Positions 48,001-54,000 of a stretch of 64,000 nucleotides of DNA are shown piece after piece. Position 1 is the stretch's first letter, and each line of letters opens with the position of its first letter. Source of the DNA: Butyrivibrio sp. XPD2006 (lineage in GTDB: Bacteria > Bacillota > Clostridia > Lachnospirales > Lachnospiraceae); assembly GCF_000420865.1 (NCBI RefSeq), contig NZ_ATVT01000004.1, positions 217,718-281,717 of the forward strand, given 5' to 3'. The position numbers were made by a program.

Positions 48001-51000
48001 AGAAGATCCAGCCTGACGTTGTCTTTTCAAAGGGCGGATATGTAAGTGTACCCGTAGTAAGAGCAGCAGGCCTTCTTAAGATTCCATACATTGTTCATGA
48101 ATCCGATATGACACCGGGTCTTGCCAACAGACTCAGTATGTCGGGCGCCAGCAAGATCTGCTGTAACTTCCCTGAGACCATGAGGCTTCTTCCTGCAGAT
48201 AAAGCGGTTCTTACAGGAACACCCATAAGAGAAGAGCTCGGAATGGGATCAAGAGAGGCAGGAAGAGAGCTGTGCGGATTTACAGATGACAAGCCGGTTC
48301 TTATGGTAATAGGTGGAAGTCTTGGAGCCCAGTCTGTTAATGAGACAGTCAGATATGCACTGCCAAGACTCCTTCCCAACTTCAACGTGGTTCATATTTG
48401 CGGAAAAGAGAAGATGGACAACCTTAAGCTCACAGTACCGGGATACAAGCAGTTTGAGTACGTCAAGAATGAGCTTAAAGATATATTTGCAATGGCAGAC
48501 ATTGTGGTTTCAAGAGCAGGTGCTAACTCCATCTGCGAGCTACTGGCTCTTAAAAAGCCAAACATCCTGATCCCGCTCTCGACCAAGTCCAGCAGAGGCG
48601 ATCAGATGCTTAATGCAAGGAGCTTTGAGCAGCAAGGTTTTTCAGTAGTTATTGATAATGATGACCTGGATGAGGATATCCTGGTTGAGACTATAGAAGA
48701 TCTTTACAATGACAGAGAGAAATATGTTGAGGCTATGAGCAAGAGTAATCTTCACAGTGCCACCAACACCATTGTTCAGATCATCAACGAAGAAATACAG
48801 TAAGAAAGAGGAATACCAATGATCTACAAGACAAAAGGAACATGTTCAACCCAGATAGATATAGAGGTTGATGGAGATATTATTAAGTCAGTCAAATTTA
48901 CCGGCGGCTGTAACGGAAATCTTCAGGGAGTATCAAGACTTGTTGAGGGTATGAAGGCTGAGGATGCCATTTCAAAGCTTCGCGGAATCAAGTGCGGATT
49001 TAAGCCTACATCCTGTCCAGACCAGTTATCATACGCAATAGAGCAGGCAATGAATGCATGACAAAAGGTGGCTCACATGACAGAGCGCAGAGACATAAAT
49101 GGATTAACTGAAAAAGAGTTTTTGGAGCAGTACACAGATACTCTTTATGATAAGCCTTCAGTTACGACGGATATTCTCGTCCTTGGCGTGGACGAGTCTT
49201 TCGCCAGGTTGAAGGCTCTTTTGATAAAGAGAGATGAACACCCTTACCTTGGATTCTATGCTCTTCCCGGAGGCTTTATCAAAAAGGACGAGACAGCTTA
49301 TCAGGCTGCATCCAGGAAGCTCTATGAGGAAGCGGGAGTCAGGGATGTGTACCTTGACCAGATATATACTTTCACAAGGCCCGGGCGTGATCCCAGAACG
49401 TGGGTTATGAGTATTGCTTACCTCGCCCTTGTGGGAGATGTGTCAGAAATAAAAACAACGGGCGAATGGTTTGATCTTGAGTTTGATGATGACCGGATAC
49501 GCCTATATAATGATGAGTCCGGAGCAGAGATTATTTATCCTGTAAGTGTAAAGAAATTTAAGAACGGTCGGATAGGCTATGAGAACCGGGTTGCAATTTC
49601 CGGAGAAAGAGGCGAGAAGCTTGCCTTTGATCATGTGGAGATCATTATAGAATCCATAATGAAGCTCAGGACTTTCTTTGAAAATTCGGATATTGCTTTT
49701 AACATGGTGGGTGATACCTTCACGCTGCCGGATCTTCAGGCGCTGTATGAACTGGTCCTTGGCAAGAAGCTTTATAAGACCAATTTCAGAGCACTGGTTG
49801 CGCCAAAGATCGAGGCAACAGGTGCAAAGATAAAATCCCGTATCAGCAACAAGATGTCTGCAGAATACAGATATATCGGATGATGATAGTGAATGAAAAC
49901 CTTGGAAAAGAAATTTTCCGGGGTTTTTTTATTTTTTTTGTTGACAAAGTAGTAAATTGCTACTAATATGTAATCAAGAAATAAATAGTAGCAAATAGCT
50001 ACTAATTAAAATTTCATACAAGACTAAGGAGGAGCTGGTTATGAAGTTTAAGAAATTTAACCCAAACGATTATGTAATGGTTGTAAAAAACGGAAAGATA
50101 GTGAAACAGGGACTTGGCCTGTCACTCTTCTACAATGAGCTGACCACAAATATTATGGTGGCACCGTCTACCGCATTTGACGGAGCGTTCGCCTTTGATG
50201 ATCTGGTTACCAGCGATTACCAGAGAGTGTGTGTACAGGGAGTTACGACATATATGCTCACAGATTATGAGAAGGCAACTCAGATGCTTGATTTTTCTTA
50301 CAATCGCGGAGCAGCGGTTTATGAGAAGATTGGAAGTACAATGGCGCTTCTTGAAAAGAGGATCAACAACATAATCAAAGCAATTGTGATAAGGGAAGTC
50401 AGCAAGAAGGACGTCAGAACGGTTATCAGATGTGCCGATGAGATGGCAAAGGTTATCGTCGATAAGCTTGCAGAGGATGAGGCAGTAACAAAGCTTGGAG
50501 TGAGCATCGTAGGAGTGAGCATCCTTGGCATCAATCCAAACACCGAGACCAGAAAGGCTTTGGAGGCAGCAGCCAGAGAGGAAATCTTAAAGGAGCAGGA
50601 CGATGCCATCTACATGAGGAGAAACGCAGCGATCGAGCAGGAGAGGGTCATCAAAGAAAATGAGATCAACACTGAAATCAAGGTCGCTGAAAAAGAGCGT
50701 GAGAAGGAAGAAAAAGAACAGGAGATGCTCAGATATGTACAGCAGTGTCAGCTCGATATGAAGAAAGAGGAGCAGGAAAGAGAGCAGGCAATGAAGCTCA
50801 TGGCTCTTCAGGCAGAGCTTACAATGAACAATGAGAAGCAGGAGAAAGAACAGGCGATGAGACTCAGAGCTCTGAAAGCCAATCTGGCTCTTGATACAGA
50901 GAAGCAGGAAAAGGAACTGGAACTTAGAGAAAAAGCAGCAGCAAAGAAAATGGAGATTGACAATGAAGAGATGCTTGGAAAAATCGAACTGGAGAAGAAA

Positions 51001-54000
51001 AACAAAGAGTATACAGCTCTGGAAGCCGAGAATGCTAAGATCAAGGCGGACCAGGAGGCCTACGCAGTTGAAGGCATTGTGAGAGCATATAACAACTTAA
51101 ATGTAGCTCTTGTTGAAGCTTGCGCAATGGCACAGATGGATCCTAAGACCCTCATGGCAAGGGCATTCATGAACATCGGAGAAAACGCTGATAAGATCGG
51201 TACATTCAATATGACACCTGATCTTCTTCAGACAATAGCAAACGGAATCGGAGAGAACCTGGTTAAAAAACAGGCATAAGTTTTAGGAGGCGGACATGGC
51301 TGATAGGGGAATGAACAAGGTAGTTCTCATTAAGAGACGCACCAGATATGAAGAACTAAAAAGGCGCTACAACACTGTAGAGCAGGCGAGATTTTATATA
51401 GAGCATCTGGGCGCTGATTTTTCGGACTACGAGAGAGAGGATAAAGTTTACAACATGGTCCTTGATCAGGTAAGAAGCTGTGTCCGCCATGTAGCAAGGC
51501 TCCAGGAGATAGACAGGGAGTACATTCCCAACATGATCTTCGGAGAAAAAGACATCGTTATCGCCGTAGGCCAGGACGGACTTGTGGCAAACGTCATGAA
51601 GTACCTGGATGGCCAGCCCCTCATAGGAGTAAACCCCGATCCCGCAAGGTGGGACGGGGTGCTGCTCCCCTTTGAAGCAGGGGACATAGAGAAGATCCTC
51701 CCCACAGTTATAGATGGGAAATACAGTGCCAAAGATGTTACAATGGGAAAGGCAGAATCTAAGGATGGACAGGTTCTTTACGCAGTAAATGATTTCTTTG
51801 TAGGCGTTGAGAATCATTCGTCTGCAAGATATCACATAAATTACAGAAATCGTATTGAAAATCAGTCATCATCGGGTATCATTATTTCAACGGGTTTTGG
51901 AATGACCGGCTGGCATAAATCCGTAATGGCTGAGTTTAAGGGAATGGCAATGGCCTTCGGTCTTGGAACTGTCAGAGAGCCTGTATACGACTGGAGCGAC
52001 AAGAGCCTTACTTTCCAGGTAAGGGAACCTTACCCCAGCCGCTTCACTCAGGCGGATATCGTATATGGAAAAATTGGAGAGAAGGAAGATCTGATACTCA
52101 CGTCTGACATGAGTGAAAAGGGAGTTGTCTTTTCCGACGGAATTCTTGATGACGCCATCGAATTCAACGCGGGAATGCAGATAAAGGTCGGGGTTGCAGA
52201 GCGCGTGGGAAGGCTGGTTACAGCATGAGTAATATGAATTATGGGAGAATGGTATGAGATCAGTATTTGAAGAACAGGTAGCAGTCGCTCAATGGCTTAT
52301 GCATCCGAGCGAATTAGGAAAAATGCCAAAAGATGTAAGATTTACTAAGCAGTTCACGACAGCAGACGGCATAGAATGCATGATTTTTAAATTCAAGAAA
52401 TCGCTTTTATCGCCGTGGCTTTTAGCTATAGCTAGTGATTCAGGGATATTCAGTGAGCAGCAGAAGTATAATCCTGCAACAGAGATTGAAGATGCAACAA
52501 AGCTGGTAGAATTTTTAAAACAGTACTGGCAGAACAAGGCTAAAGAACAGACTGACAGAGAAGAAAAAGCAAAAGGAGCAGGCGTGTTTGCTGCGTTTGC
52601 GCTTTTGAAGGAAGCGACCTGGAATGCTTTGGAATTTGAAAAAGCATTCCAGGATGAATGGGGAATTACACTTTCCGACAGTGAATCTACTGAGTCGGGA
52701 ACTAAGGCATACTCCGTGCCGGAGTTAGGCGCCAAGGCTATTCTGGCAATTACACTTGTTGAAGCGTCCGTGCCCGGTGGGGAGGCAGAATACAATGCGC
52801 AGTACAATTACTTATGGAAAGATGCTGTACAGGTTGCCAAGTCGCATAAGGCACATTTGATCGTCTCGGTTTTGGGAGCAGATACACCTAAAGGTGGAGG
52901 AGCGCTATTTGCTATGGCATTATCCTCAATCTGTCACAATGAGAATACTTTGGGCATTTACTACAACAATGTTGTTGTTCAGCCTAACTATATTTTTGCC
53001 GGTGCTGAGTTTCTTAAGATGAAGCAGTTTCCGGTGCTGTCACTGGTCTGGATTGGGATTGTTCAGTCAGAAAATGGTATAAGTGGCTATACTACAGGAT
53101 TAACTAATCTTGGAAAAGATGAAATAGAAATAGTAAATGTGAGAAAGAGCCCTAATGAGATTCGTGATTTCCTTCAAAACATTGCCTCATATGTAATTGA
53201 AGAAGACGTTATTCTTCACGACGGTGAAACCATAGGTGCAGATAATACACAGCGACTAAAAATAGTAAAGAGCGCAGGGGTCAATGTGAAGGGCGAGAGC
53301 CTGAAGATCCTGTATCAATAAAGCGTAGGGATATGGGGATTATGTATTAAGTAAAAAGGAGGGTTATCTTATGTTAGAGGTTGGAACTAAAGCTCCGGAG
53401 TTTGAACTCCCGGATCAGAACGGAGAAATGCATGCACTCAAGGACTACAGAGGCAAGAAGGTAATCCTGTATTTTTATCCCAAGGACAATACTTCCGGAT
53501 GCACCAAGCAGGCCTGTGGTTTTTCTGAGAGATATCCTCAGTTTACGGAAAAGGGCGCTGTTGTACTGGGAGTAAGTAAAGATACTGTAGCGTCACATAA
53601 GAAATTTGAGGAAAAGTATGGTCTTGCTTTTACGCTTTTAGCTGATCCTGAGCGTAAGGTAATTGAGGCTTATGATGTCTGGAAAGAGAAGAAAAACTAT
53701 GGAAAGATATCCATGGGCGTAGTAAGGACAACATATCTGATCGATGAAGAAGGCATCATCATCAGGGCTAATGACAAAGTTAAGGCAGCAGACGATCCGG
53801 AAAAGATGCTTGGAGAACTGTAATGAGGATAATCCTTTCCCCCGCCAAGAAAATGAATGTTGATACCGATAAGCTTGAGTGTCAGGGATTGCCTGTGTTT
53901 CTGGAGCAGACACAGGAAATTCTTGATTGGCTTTTGTTGCAATCTCATGAAGATCTGCAAAAGCTCTGGAGCTGTAATGACAGCATAGCTGAGCAGAATT

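Follow-up and report, generated by a model that had tools for sequence, protein, structure and literature searches.

We found that a gene unit in Butyrivibrio sp. XPD2006 is a copy of the bacterial operon nrtR-nrtX-nrtY, which was predicted in 2008 and is widespread. The DNA studied was a 64-kb window (the whole stretch that was analysed) of contig NZ_ATVT01000004.1, and all coordinates are window positions (Table 1). When the sequence was re-read, the four open reading frames of an earlier note lay at the same positions, all on the + strand and separated by 157, 16 and 25 bp, and the domain calls made there (an NrtR-type Nudix-wHTH regulator, an SPFH protein and a NadK-like protein) were correct according to Pfam, NCBIfam, PDB profile and Foldseek searches. 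The proposed link of the unit to NAD(P) was also judged sound. The note had further held that this is not a described arrangement; SPFH and NadK-like proteins under NrtR are, however, the nrtX-nrtY of Rodionov et al. 2008 (NAR 36:2047; PMC2330246), where the nrtR-nrtX-nrtY unit is given as "function ?".

Table 1. Features of the nrtR-nrtX-nrtY region and the genes behind it.
Feature	Position	Strand	Basis
nrtR, Nudix-wHTH transcriptional repressor, 268 aa	49077..49883	+	Pfam, NCBIfam, PDB matches
Intrinsic-terminator-like hairpin and T-run, end of nrtR transcript	49895..49938	+	15-pair stem, then TTATTTTTTT
Sigma-A-type promoter of nrtX-nrtY	49941..49969	+	-35 TTGACA 49941-49946, 17-nt spacer, -10 TAATAT 49964-49969
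Predicted operator O1, AGTAGTAAATTGCTACTAAT, overlapping spacer and -10 box	49948..49967		Palindrome scan
Predicted operator O2, AGTAGCAAATAGCTACTAAT, leader region, 39 bp downstream of O1	49987..50006		Palindrome scan
Ribosome-binding site AAGGAGG, 8 nt before nrtX ATG	50026..50032	+	Read from sequence
nrtX, soluble SPFH/Band-7 protein, 412 aa	50041..51279	+	Pfam Band_7, OrfX homology
nrtY, NADK2/C5orf33-type NAD kinase homologue, 310 aa	51296..52228	+	OrfY homology, PDB profile, AlphaFold2/Foldseek
DUF4261 protein, 355 aa	52254..53321	+	Pfam DUF4261, residues 279-352 only
bcp (peroxiredoxin) and yaaA (peroxide-stress protein)	53371..54575	+	Pfam AhpC-TSA, H2O2_YaaD

The conserved core comprises three genes

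The window unit was identified as nrtX-nrtY because homologues of both proteins are named "NrtR-regulated hypothetical OrfX/OrfY" in their source annotation (SEED/RAST), with 30% identity to OrfX for NrtX (E 3e-13) and 39% identity to OrfY for NrtY (E 6e-74), because the Proteus mirabilis homologues reproduced the published divergon (nrtR<#>nrtX-nrtY; Rodionov et al. 2008, PMC2330246), and because a NUDIX<>SPFH-kinase arrangement is present on Rhizobium etli p42f. The published unit has the same three protein families and palindromic sites upstream of the Band-7 gene. It differs in that the window nrtR is upstream and co-directional with a terminator between nrtR and nrtX, and in that a DUF4261 gene has been added at the end.

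We compared gene neighbourhoods over 80 related loci (918 kb of locus sequence) from Bacillota, Spirochaetota, Pseudomonadota, Planctomycetota, Verrucomicrobiota, Acidobacteriota and other phyla. The SPFH gene lay directly upstream of the kinase gene in every one of them (80/80), with a gap of at most 30 bp or an overlap in 60, including a 4-bp overlap in 23. An nrtR gene was found inside the fetched locus in 38 cases. It lay at most 300 bp downstream in 16 of these and at most 300 bp upstream in 12, was divergently oriented in 3 and was more distant in 7. Co-localisation in related genomes, which had been set beforehand as a test, thus held for the nrtR, SPFH and NadK-like genes and failed for the DUF4261 gene, which was present at none of the 80 loci, the closest relative included; the conserved core is therefore nrtR-nrtX-nrtY and not the unit of four genes that had been proposed.

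That the DUF4261 protein nevertheless cooperates functionally with the SPFH and NadK-like proteins would be in keeping with the 25-bp gap, the common strand, the lack of a terminator after nrtY in a sequence scan of XPD2006, and the presence of all four genes in near-identical strains. We consider this highly improbable: besides the count of 0/80, an unrelated ORF occupies the slot in the nearest species, and DUF4261 homologues form only 62 clusters, of which the three contexts examined were unrelated and had neither SPFH nor kinase genes. A DUF4261-containing four-gene unit is refuted as a conserved module by these loci and contexts. For the same reasons we place the gene outside the module and treat it as a strain-specific passenger. 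It is probably co-transcribed with nrtX-nrtY in XPD2006, and since a scan of the 49-bp gap behind it detected neither terminator nor promoter, bcp-yaaA are possible read-through targets of the same transcript; their adjacency to the module was confined to the nearest Butyrivibrio relatives.

Regulator, promoter and operators

NrtR matched the Pfam families NUDIX (3.8e-11) and NrtR_WHD (4e-10, a match that passes the gathering score) and the NCBIfam model of the ADPR-responsive repressor, NF050029 (1.7e-34, yet under the equivalog cut-off). Its PDB matches were 2FML (5.7e-28), BtAraR (2.4e-23) and Shewanella NrtR 3GZ5 (2.2e-22). The Nudix box, read from the translation, is G-x5-E-x7-R-K-L-x-E-E-x-G-V, so that Lys replaces the Glu of 'RE'. 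The gene has an alternative GTG start at 49068, a TSCPD gene ends 15 bp before it, and the operator scan of the window revealed no operator of its own. Behind it, the terminator-like hairpin proper spans 49895-49928 and is followed by the T-run.

The operator-controlled promoter described earlier proved to be real, with TTGACA-17-TAATAT and two palindromes of ~20 bp at the place given. The promoter matches 10 of 12 consensus positions, and O1 and O2 are direct, 90% identical copies of a 20-nt palindromic site. No further copies of the pattern occurred elsewhere in the 64-kb window, and the operator count was reached by 0 of 100 shuffles. Across the related loci, an O1-type motif lay upstream of the SPFH gene in 20, and paired operators 32-39 bp apart were found in Butyrivibrio and other rumen Lachnospiraceae as well as at one of the Treponema/Spirochaetaceae loci. 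Of 33 matches to the window-type operator over the 918 kb, 30 fell inside the 250 nt upstream of SPFH genes, a space that makes up 2% of the total. Of the remaining three, two lay directly upstream of nrtR. The palindromes upstream of SPFH genes differ by lineage, and in Paenibacillus and Saccharibacillus they are TAATGTCATATTGACATTA-type sites with a GT-N7-AC core, even where no nrtR is adjacent. This core is that of the published NrtR operator (PMC2330246). The window operators lack it, their half-site being AGTAGC, which counts against the explanation that we favour below.

NrtX is a soluble SPFH protein

NrtX has an N-terminal SPFH domain (Pfam Band_7, 1.9e-10), a long charged helix and, in the family alignment, a conserved C-terminal motif ADKIG..N..PDLL. 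About 65 of its residues are E/K repeats with a 22-residue periodicity; these 22-aa repeats are a lineage-specific insertion and set the window protein apart from the published unit. Like SPFH assemblies such as stomatin, HflK/C and flotillin, NrtX combines a Band_7 domain with a long helical stretch behind it, and its gene is tightly coupled in an operon to that of a partner, as SPFH genes often are coupled. In contrast to these, NrtX has no membrane anchor (no hydrophobic segment able to span a membrane was present in any of the four proteins), no NfeD or protease partner gene, and instead a soluble kinase homologue as its partner. Its likeness to solved SPFH structures is very distant (closest is stomatin, E ~0.004), which also counts against the favoured explanation. 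SPFH proteins usually regulate partner proteins, as in HflK/C-FtsH and stomatin-NfeD.

NrtY resembles NADK2-type kinases

Profile and model comparisons indicate that NrtY has an NAD-kinase fold that is nearest to NADK2. With the family profile, human NADK2 (C5orf33) was found in the PDB at E 9e-21, as against 1e-6 or worse for canonical NadK, and the AlphaFold2 model (pLDDT 91.5) had NADK2 (7r4l) as its best Foldseek match (E 1.8e-21, TM 0.75), with NAD kinases filling all top 50 places. In common with NADK2 and plant NADK3, NrtY begins with a strand-helix extension (TR[YL]E) and has the catalytic Asp, C5orf33 motif 1 (P-x-x-G-x-N-x-D-P; PLIGVNPDP in NrtY), the NE/D motif and a Trp at the position of the canonical NadK Tyr. 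Equivalents of NADK2 D161 (catalytic), W319 (nicotinamide stacking) and K76 (basic; R14 in NrtY) are retained. NrtY differs from NADK2 in being only ~19% identical, shorter and bacterial, with an obligate SPFH neighbour and predicted NrtR control. NADK2 carries a dimerisation insert, and NrtY has a helix-loop at 205-237. Canonical bacterial NadK/PpnK has the same fold (Foldseek E ~1e-17 to 1e-18) and the same catalytic Asp region, whereas its sequence similarity to NrtY is marginal and its N-terminus, NAD-site residue and genomic context are all different.

Several observations on NrtY count against the explanation that we favour below. A Pfam search of NrtY gave no match, NAD_kinase included, NCBIfam NAD-kinase models matched weakly (~1e-6, far under the cut-offs), GGDG is replaced by GQDG with the second Gly variable in the family, and the equivalent of the adenine-stacking H191 of NADK2 is Val. 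The imperfect GQDG, the missing Pfam match and the habit of SPFH proteins to regulate partners would suit an inert NAD-binding pseudo-kinase that serves as the ligand-sensing subunit of an SPFH assembly acting elsewhere, for example on a protease or a membrane process. We regard this as unlikely, because there is little or no variation at the catalytic D94, at N165-D166, in the SSSG..STG.G.TGW block, at W206 and at the C-terminal D281-G282 among sequences that share only 31-54% identity with the window protein, a pattern that fits an active enzyme; moreover, no protease or NfeD gene recurred in the 80 loci, and NrtX is unanchored. In view of these conserved residues, the earlier description of a degenerate dinucleotide-binding motif was overstated.

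A model for nrtR-nrtX-nrtY and its relation to ADP-ribosylation

The explanation that we favour, and hold to be somewhat probable, is a second NAD kinase, NrtY, that is repressed by NrtR, induced by NAD breakdown and accompanied by an NrtX scaffold. NrtR bound at O1, over the spacer and -10 box, and at O2, in the early leader, would keep the strong sigma-A promoter, and with it nrtX-nrtY, switched off. ADP-ribose releases NrtR from DNA (PMC2330246); by analogy with characterised NrtR proteins, build-up of ADP-ribose or a close NAD-breakdown product, a signal of NAD consumption or ADP-ribosylation turnover, would free the operon for transcription. Most speculatively, NrtX, almost always translationally coupled to NrtY, may assemble into a ring or cage, as is typical of SPFH proteins, and scaffold, confine or gate the kinase. 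In XPD2006 the DUF4261 gene, and possibly bcp-yaaA, would ride on the same transcript outside the conserved system. Against this explanation, the benefit of more NADP while NAD is consumed is not obvious.

The module might instead be a conflict or repair system that is switched on by ADP-ribose and answers ADP-ribosylation by ADP-ribosyltransferases or NADases of phage or toxin origin, with NrtY phosphorylating an ADP-ribose-derived molecule or sheltering dinucleotides as NADP, and NrtX as scaffold or effector. Iyer et al. (2022, Viruses 14:1977) predicted that ARG-centred systems under Nudix-HTH regulators counteract viral ADP-ribosylation; these share the regulator type and the logic by which ADPr relieves repression, and NADAR and PARG/Macro-type genes join the nrtR-nrtX-nrtY operon in some genomes. 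They differ in that the text of that paper mentions neither SPFH nor NAD kinase, and in that genes for ARG, phosphatases, chaperones or nucleases are lacking from the nrtR-nrtX-nrtY core. The MAG locus L032 carries NADAR and two microbial PARG genes within its nrtR...nrtY operon, besides DUF4291 genes, the MAG locus L028 has NADAR and PARG within the operon, and DUF4291 also adjoins the SPFH-kinase pair at L071. The NADAR and PARG genes hint at processing of ADP-ribose conjugates and not plain cofactor supply. The slot adjoining nrtY is variable as well, being filled in one or another close relative by DUF4261, by a 206-aa ORF or by a PRK06922 methyltransferase, and the cassette has been exchanged between rumen Butyrivibrio and Treponema, whose kinases are 77-80% identical in amino acids and whose operators are of the same type.

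We nonetheless give this alternative a rather low probability. The defence reading of the earlier note found no direct support, as PADLOC was blank for NrtX, NrtY and the DUF4261 protein (its sole match among the four proteins was a sub-threshold generic Nudix match for NrtR), no copies occurred in IMG/VR or a phage collection, and no defence genes recurred across the 80 neighbourhoods. The SPFH-kinase pair is also conserved by vertical descent inside genera, Paenibacillus for example, and in a reduced Parcubacteria genome its neighbours are cell-wall genes. Furthermore, the lack of variation at the Trp that corresponds to W319 speaks for an intact dinucleotide as substrate, and ADP-ribose is not phosphorylated by canonical NAD kinases.

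What is new relative to the 2008 description is the recognition of NrtY as a homologue of NADK2/C5orf33-type kinases. Enzymes of the NADK2/NADK3 type phosphorylate NAD(H) and are linked to ROS defence, and as a mitochondrial-type (NADK2/C5orf33/NADK3-like) enzyme NrtY would make NADP(H) from NAD(H) and serve as a second, inducible NAD kinase by which the NADP(H) pool may be tuned at high NAD turnover.

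An operator-controlled nrtR-nrtX-nrtY operon

The earlier note had described four co-directional ORFs and a promoter overlapped by two palindromes. We recovered the ORFs at these places with the same intergenic gaps of 157, 16 and 25 bp, and located both palindromes (the candidate operators O1 and O2) in the 157-bp gap. The four encoded proteins were each identical to a protein of the rumen Lachnospiraceae Butyrivibrio sp. XPD2006. The two sites were 90% identical with a spacing of 39 bp; no further copy of the operator pattern was present within the 64-kb window, and the observed count was reached by no shuffle. 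We conclude that nrtR-nrtX-nrtY is here a real, tight, operator-controlled operon.

Features of the operon and of the nrtR-nrtX intergenic region in the window
Feature	Position	Strand	Remarks
nrtR, Nudix-wHTH regulator	49077-49883	+	Pfam NUDIX and NrtR winged-helix domain, the latter above gathering score
Hairpin and T-run	49895-49938
Promoter TTGACA-17-TAATAT	49941-49969
O1, 20-nt palindromic site	49948-49967		over spacer and -10 box
O2, 20-nt palindromic site	49987-50006		in leader
AAGGAGG ribosome-binding site			in 157-bp gap between nrtR and nrtX
nrtX, SPFH protein	50041-51279	+	Pfam Band_7
nrtY, kinase-like	51296-52228	+	no Pfam match; NCBIfam NAD-kinase scores sub-threshold
DUF4261 gene	52254-53321	+	Pfam DUF4261, last 75 residues only

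The same note had regarded this combination of genes as not previously described. In fact, nrtX-nrtY has been listed in the NrtR regulon with function unknown since 2008 (Rodionov et al. 2008, PMC2330246). Table 1 of that study mentions Streptomyces, Kineococcus, Frankia, Hahella and Proteus mirabilis, and gives the order nrtR<#>nrtX-nrtY for P. mirabilis. One nrtY homologue is annotated "NrtR-regulated hypothetical OrfY" and its Band_7 neighbour "NrtR-regulated hypothetical OrfX", and the window proteins matched these annotated homologues with E values of 6e-74 (OrfY, PpnK-type) and 3e-13 (OrfX, Band 7). The Proteus mirabilis homologues reproduced the published divergon exactly, and Rhizobium etli p42f carried a divergon of the form NUDIX<>SPFH-"sugar kinase". 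As in the 2008 prediction, the window pair has a candidate NrtR site upstream and is linked to nrtR. On the strength of these annotations, homologies and divergons, the view that the arrangement was undescribed was therefore wrong. The window operon belongs to the known, uncharacterised nrtR-nrtX-nrtY kind and is not a new four-gene module; its identity as nrtR-nrtX-nrtY is nearly certain. Our literature search returned no paper on nrtX-nrtY function beyond the 2008 prediction, which was also the sole paper to use these names in the NrtR-regulon sense, and none that combined NrtR with SPFH, or SPFH with NAD kinase and operon.

The SPFH-kinase pair is conserved across phyla

Relatives of nrtY numbered in the thousands, among them about 250 clusters at 50% identity (E <1e-30), and were spread over many phyla, reduced Parcubacteria genomes included. 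For the locus survey, one genome per species was scanned with an 11-sequence alignment as query, which returned 80 loci from Lachnospiraceae, Treponema, Paenibacillus, Saccharibacillus, Burkholderiales, Planctomycetota, Verrucomicrobiota, Acidobacteriota, Ignavibacteria and others. The SPFH gene lay directly upstream of the kinase gene in all 80, with a gap of 30 bp or less or an overlap in 60 and a 4-bp overlap in 23. nrtR was found inside the fetched locus in 38 cases. It was divergent in 3 of these and lay 300 bp or less downstream in 16 and 300 bp or less upstream in 12; the other 7 had it farther off or in another placement. The co-localisation proposed for the first three genes was thus borne out. 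Clustering of all ORFs of the 80 loci yielded no further broadly conserved neighbours; the common clusters were SPFH, kinase and NrtR. A PRK06922 methyltransferase (11 loci) and generic ABC ATPases also came up, as did shadow ORFs on the antisense strand.

Several individual loci deserve mention. Rumen Treponema/Spirochaetaceae carried the cassette (L008, L011-L013 and L015; also plasmid NZ_AP025289.1 of Treponema saccharophilum) with kinases 71-80% identical to the Butyrivibrio nrtY product and, in L011-L013, with the same operator type, a similarity that points to recent transfer of the cassette between phyla. In the reduced candidate-phyla-radiation genome of Parcubacteria bacterium C7867-001 (L086/L087:4134-5912), a Band_7-kinase pair without an adjacent nrtR lay between mraY and ftsW-murG, and in reduced genomes of this sort NrtY might be the sole NAD kinase. 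A murG gene (47724-48803) also lies just upstream of the unit in the window. In Proteus mirabilis (L091:5135-6328), about 700 bp separate nrtY from a downstream tet(J). On small plasmids of Pasteurellaceae, Psychrobacter and uncultured bacteria (hits H76-H85), nrtY was present as truncated 3' fragments, possibly remnants that had travelled with adjacent DNA when it was mobilised.

The regulator and its operators

The regulator had an N-terminal Nudix-like domain (Pfam NUDIX, 3.8e-11), with a Nudix box that, as read from the translation, was intact apart from RE->RK. It could be aligned to the solved NrtR-family structures 2FML, BtAraR and Shewanella NrtR (SoNrtR) in the PDB. Its C-terminus proved to be a winged helix of NrtR type, as had been proposed: PF21906 matched residues 207-265 with 40.1 bits (cut-off 27), and the BtAraR C-terminal domain aligned to residues 181-265.

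NrtR-family operators are palindromes of about 21 bp with a GT-N7-AC core upstream of the targets, and lineage-divergent motifs have been remarked on (Rodionov et al. 2008, PMC2330246). The window palindromes have the core AGC-N5-GCT, not GT-N7-AC, and this motif was kept in relatives. When 918 kb of loci were searched for the window-type motif AGTAGYAAAWWRCTACT with up to 2 mismatches, 30 of the 33 matches lay within 250 nt upstream of an SPFH gene, usually in pairs 32-39 bp apart, and 2 of the remaining 3 lay directly upstream of an operon-heading nrtR. Sites of the (T/A)ATCAT-N-ATGA(T/C) type were found upstream of SPFH in other Lachnospiraceae, Paenibacillus and Saccharibacillus; the Paenibacillus site TAATGTCATATTGACATTA contains the published GT-N7-AC core although nrtR is not adjacent. 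This comparative operator analysis supports control of the operon. Judged from the position of O1 on the spacer and -10 box and of O2 in the leader, repression would naturally be read as promoter occlusion. ADP-ribose releases characterised NrtR proteins from DNA (Rodionov et al. 2008, PMC2330246), and by analogy it would relieve NrtR binding here as well. We consider this regulatory logic likely. nrtR had no operator of its own in the window; in XPD2006 it probably shares a transcript with murG-TSCPD instead of being autoregulated. Of note, only 15-bp gaps separate murG, a gene for an 80-aa stand-alone TSCPD-domain protein and nrtR (47724-49883).

The slot downstream of nrtY is variable

The earlier note had counted an orphan fourth gene as part of the module, which did not hold up: the DUF4261 gene was present in 0 of the 80 related loci and the homologues examined occurred in unrelated contexts. 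Homologues of the protein formed only 62 clusters, of which most carried no taxonomic label; those with a name belonged to Clostridia (Lachnospiraceae, Acetatifactor, Clostridiaceae). The three homologue contexts that we examined lacked SPFH and kinase genes. In the nearest species, Butyrivibrio sp. NC2007 (L006:6930-7550), the slot after nrtY is taken by an unrelated 206-aa ORF without a family match, which overlaps the nrtY stop codon; this slot is therefore variable between close relatives. We treated the DUF4261 gene as a probably co-transcribed passenger. No terminator was detected between it and bcp-yaaA, and these two genes were left out of the module because their adjacency was confined to the nearest relatives.

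Together with genes for a TM1586-type nitroreductase and a carboxylesterase, bcp (peroxiredoxin) and yaaA form an oxidative-stress/detoxification-type run (53371-57355). In B. hungatei (L009) and Butyrivibrio sp. INlla21 (L007), a methyltransferase gene directly follows nrtY, so this block looks inserted. The methyltransferase is a class I SAM enzyme (NCBIfam PRK06922, about 660-700 aa) whose N-terminal 400 aa had no Pfam match; it was encoded in 11 of the 80 loci (for example L001:14120-16139, L007/L009:6936-8930 and L040:2863-4956) and abutted nrtX-nrtY in about half of these 11. Strains 98% identical to the window have the methyltransferase downstream, where the window is missing a 2,020-bp segment. 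A 17-bp stretch of the window (57399-57415) aligned to both flanks of this segment, the pattern that a direct repeat at the junction would leave.

NrtY resembles the mitochondrial NAD kinase NADK2

Among known structures, NrtY was closest in both sequence profile and fold to human mitochondrial NADK2. Searched alone against the PDB, it matched NADK2 only (5e-8), and the family profile reached 9e-21 for NADK2 as against 1e-6 or worse for the more distant canonical NadK/PpnK. A confident AlphaFold2 model (pLDDT 91.5) gave NADK2 structures as best Foldseek PDB matches (E 1.8e-21, TM 0.75), and all of the top 50 were NAD kinases, which identifies the fold. Of the curated models, Pfam PF01513/PF20143 did not match NrtY, and the best NCBIfam NAD-kinase equivalog scored 28 bits, with cut-offs above 200.

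We next read the alignments against the NADK2 papers to establish residue equivalences. The catalytic Asp of NADK2 (D161) corresponds to D94 in NrtY, and the K76 position is basic in the family (R14). The NE/D motif (N165-D166) and the Gly-rich NAD-site block SSSG..STG.G.TGW were conserved. Two features are held in common with NADK2/C5orf33, namely motif 1 (PX-GXN(T/S)DP, which reads PLIGVNPDP in NrtY, with Pro at the T/S position) and a Trp where canonical enzymes have Tyr, the invariant W206 being equivalent to the nicotinamide-stacking W319. NrtY differs from NADK2 in having Val for the adenine-stacking His191 and in reading GQDG at the GGDG position, the second Gly of which was variable in a 38-sequence family alignment that had G92 invariant and D94 and G95 nearly so. 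On balance, we infer with moderate confidence an NAD(H) kinase activity of the NADK2/NADK3 type for NrtY. According to two reviews, bacteria possess only one NAD kinase, so the NrtY family appears to have been overlooked.

NrtX is a soluble SPFH protein

The Band_7 domain of NrtX scored 41.5 bits (Pfam cut-off 23.6), although the protein is divergent, with a stomatin match of only E 0.004 even with a profile. Stomatin, HflK/C and flotillin have an N-terminal transmembrane segment or hairpin, whereas NrtX has neither and begins directly with the SPFH strands. A membrane anchor was ruled out on hydropathy, the maximum 19-residue value (1.43) lying inside the SPFH domain. Downstream of this domain, a helix (RALEA.AREQILK.AD.AIY.RRNAAIEQER.IKENELNTEI) and a C-terminal motif (ADKIG.LN..PDLL) were conserved, the helix strongly so. 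A stretch of 151 residues, of which 45% are charged and only two are Pro or Gly, fits a long helix. The E/K coiled-coil proposed earlier was in part recovered: the E/K-rich helix is present (residues ~200-345; window 50640-51100), but it is largely a lineage-limited insertion of three 22-residue repeats (EEQEREQAMKLMALQAELTMNN and similar). Among the aligned sequences these repeats were limited to Butyrivibrio, Treponema and one rumen Lachnospiraceae sequence, and most homologues (about 340 aa) did not have them. With these repeats, the helical part of any SPFH assembly would become longer. Because the pairing with NrtY is universal and often translationally coupled, and in view of general SPFH behavior, we tentatively propose that NrtX would form an SPFH-type ring or cage that scaffolds or gates NrtY, a role for which we see somewhat less than an even chance.

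Conflict or repair versus cofactor supply

Two uncultured Bacillota genomes contained expanded operons, nrtR-NADAR-PARG-nrtX-DUF4291-PARG-DUF4291-nrtY (L032:892-6921, with a microbial-type PARG after NADAR) and nrtR-NADAR-PARG-nrtX-nrtY (L028:2761-6921), both with a window-type operator just upstream of nrtR. In some genomes, ADP-ribose-removing enzymes are therefore encoded inside the module. These operons, and the PRK06922-type methyltransferase (about 680 aa) of 11 loci, echo the anti-ADP-ribosylation systems under Nudix-HTH control proposed by Iyer et al. (2022, Viruses 14:1977), and hint that the module may be a conflict or repair system tied to ADP-ribosylation. That proposal makes no mention of SPFH or NAD kinase. 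Several results speak against such a reading. A scan of the four proteins with PADLOC-DB 2.0 gave no match for NrtX, NrtY or the DUF4261 protein and a weak generic Nudix match (17 bits) for NrtR. A phage origin was rejected, as no relative turned up in IMG/VR or 50,697 phage records. Moreover, defence neighbours did not recur in the 80 loci, and the reduced genome of a Parcubacteria member has kept the nrtX-nrtY pair. The likeliest mechanism is that ADP-ribose lifts the repression of a mitochondrial-type NAD(H) kinase scaffolded by an SPFH protein.

A more far-reaching version, which we consider unlikely, is that a soluble SPFH nanocage houses or gates the mitochondrial-type NAD(H) kinase and is induced by ADP-ribose against NAD cleavage or ADP-ribosylation stress, including that from phage or toxin enzymes, and that the NrtY family was the prokaryotic source of NADK2/NADK3. 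If true, it would contradict the textbook notion of a single bacterial NAD kinase.

The existence of the unit and its regulation by NrtR had been predicted before this analysis, and the earlier note is corrected to the extent that the arrangement is conserved and previously predicted, with the "orphan" fourth gene outside it. The assignment to the NADK2/C5orf33 type, with intact catalytic and nicotinamide-site residues, provides a directly testable function for NrtY, and its invariable coupling to a soluble SPFH protein makes it a new kind of SPFH client. A second kinase that is inducible and under ADP-ribose control would alter the view of bacterial NADP(H) homeostasis and would also be relevant to where the mitochondrial enzyme came from. 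Altogether, the system occurs widely, has so far gone unstudied and can now be tested directly.
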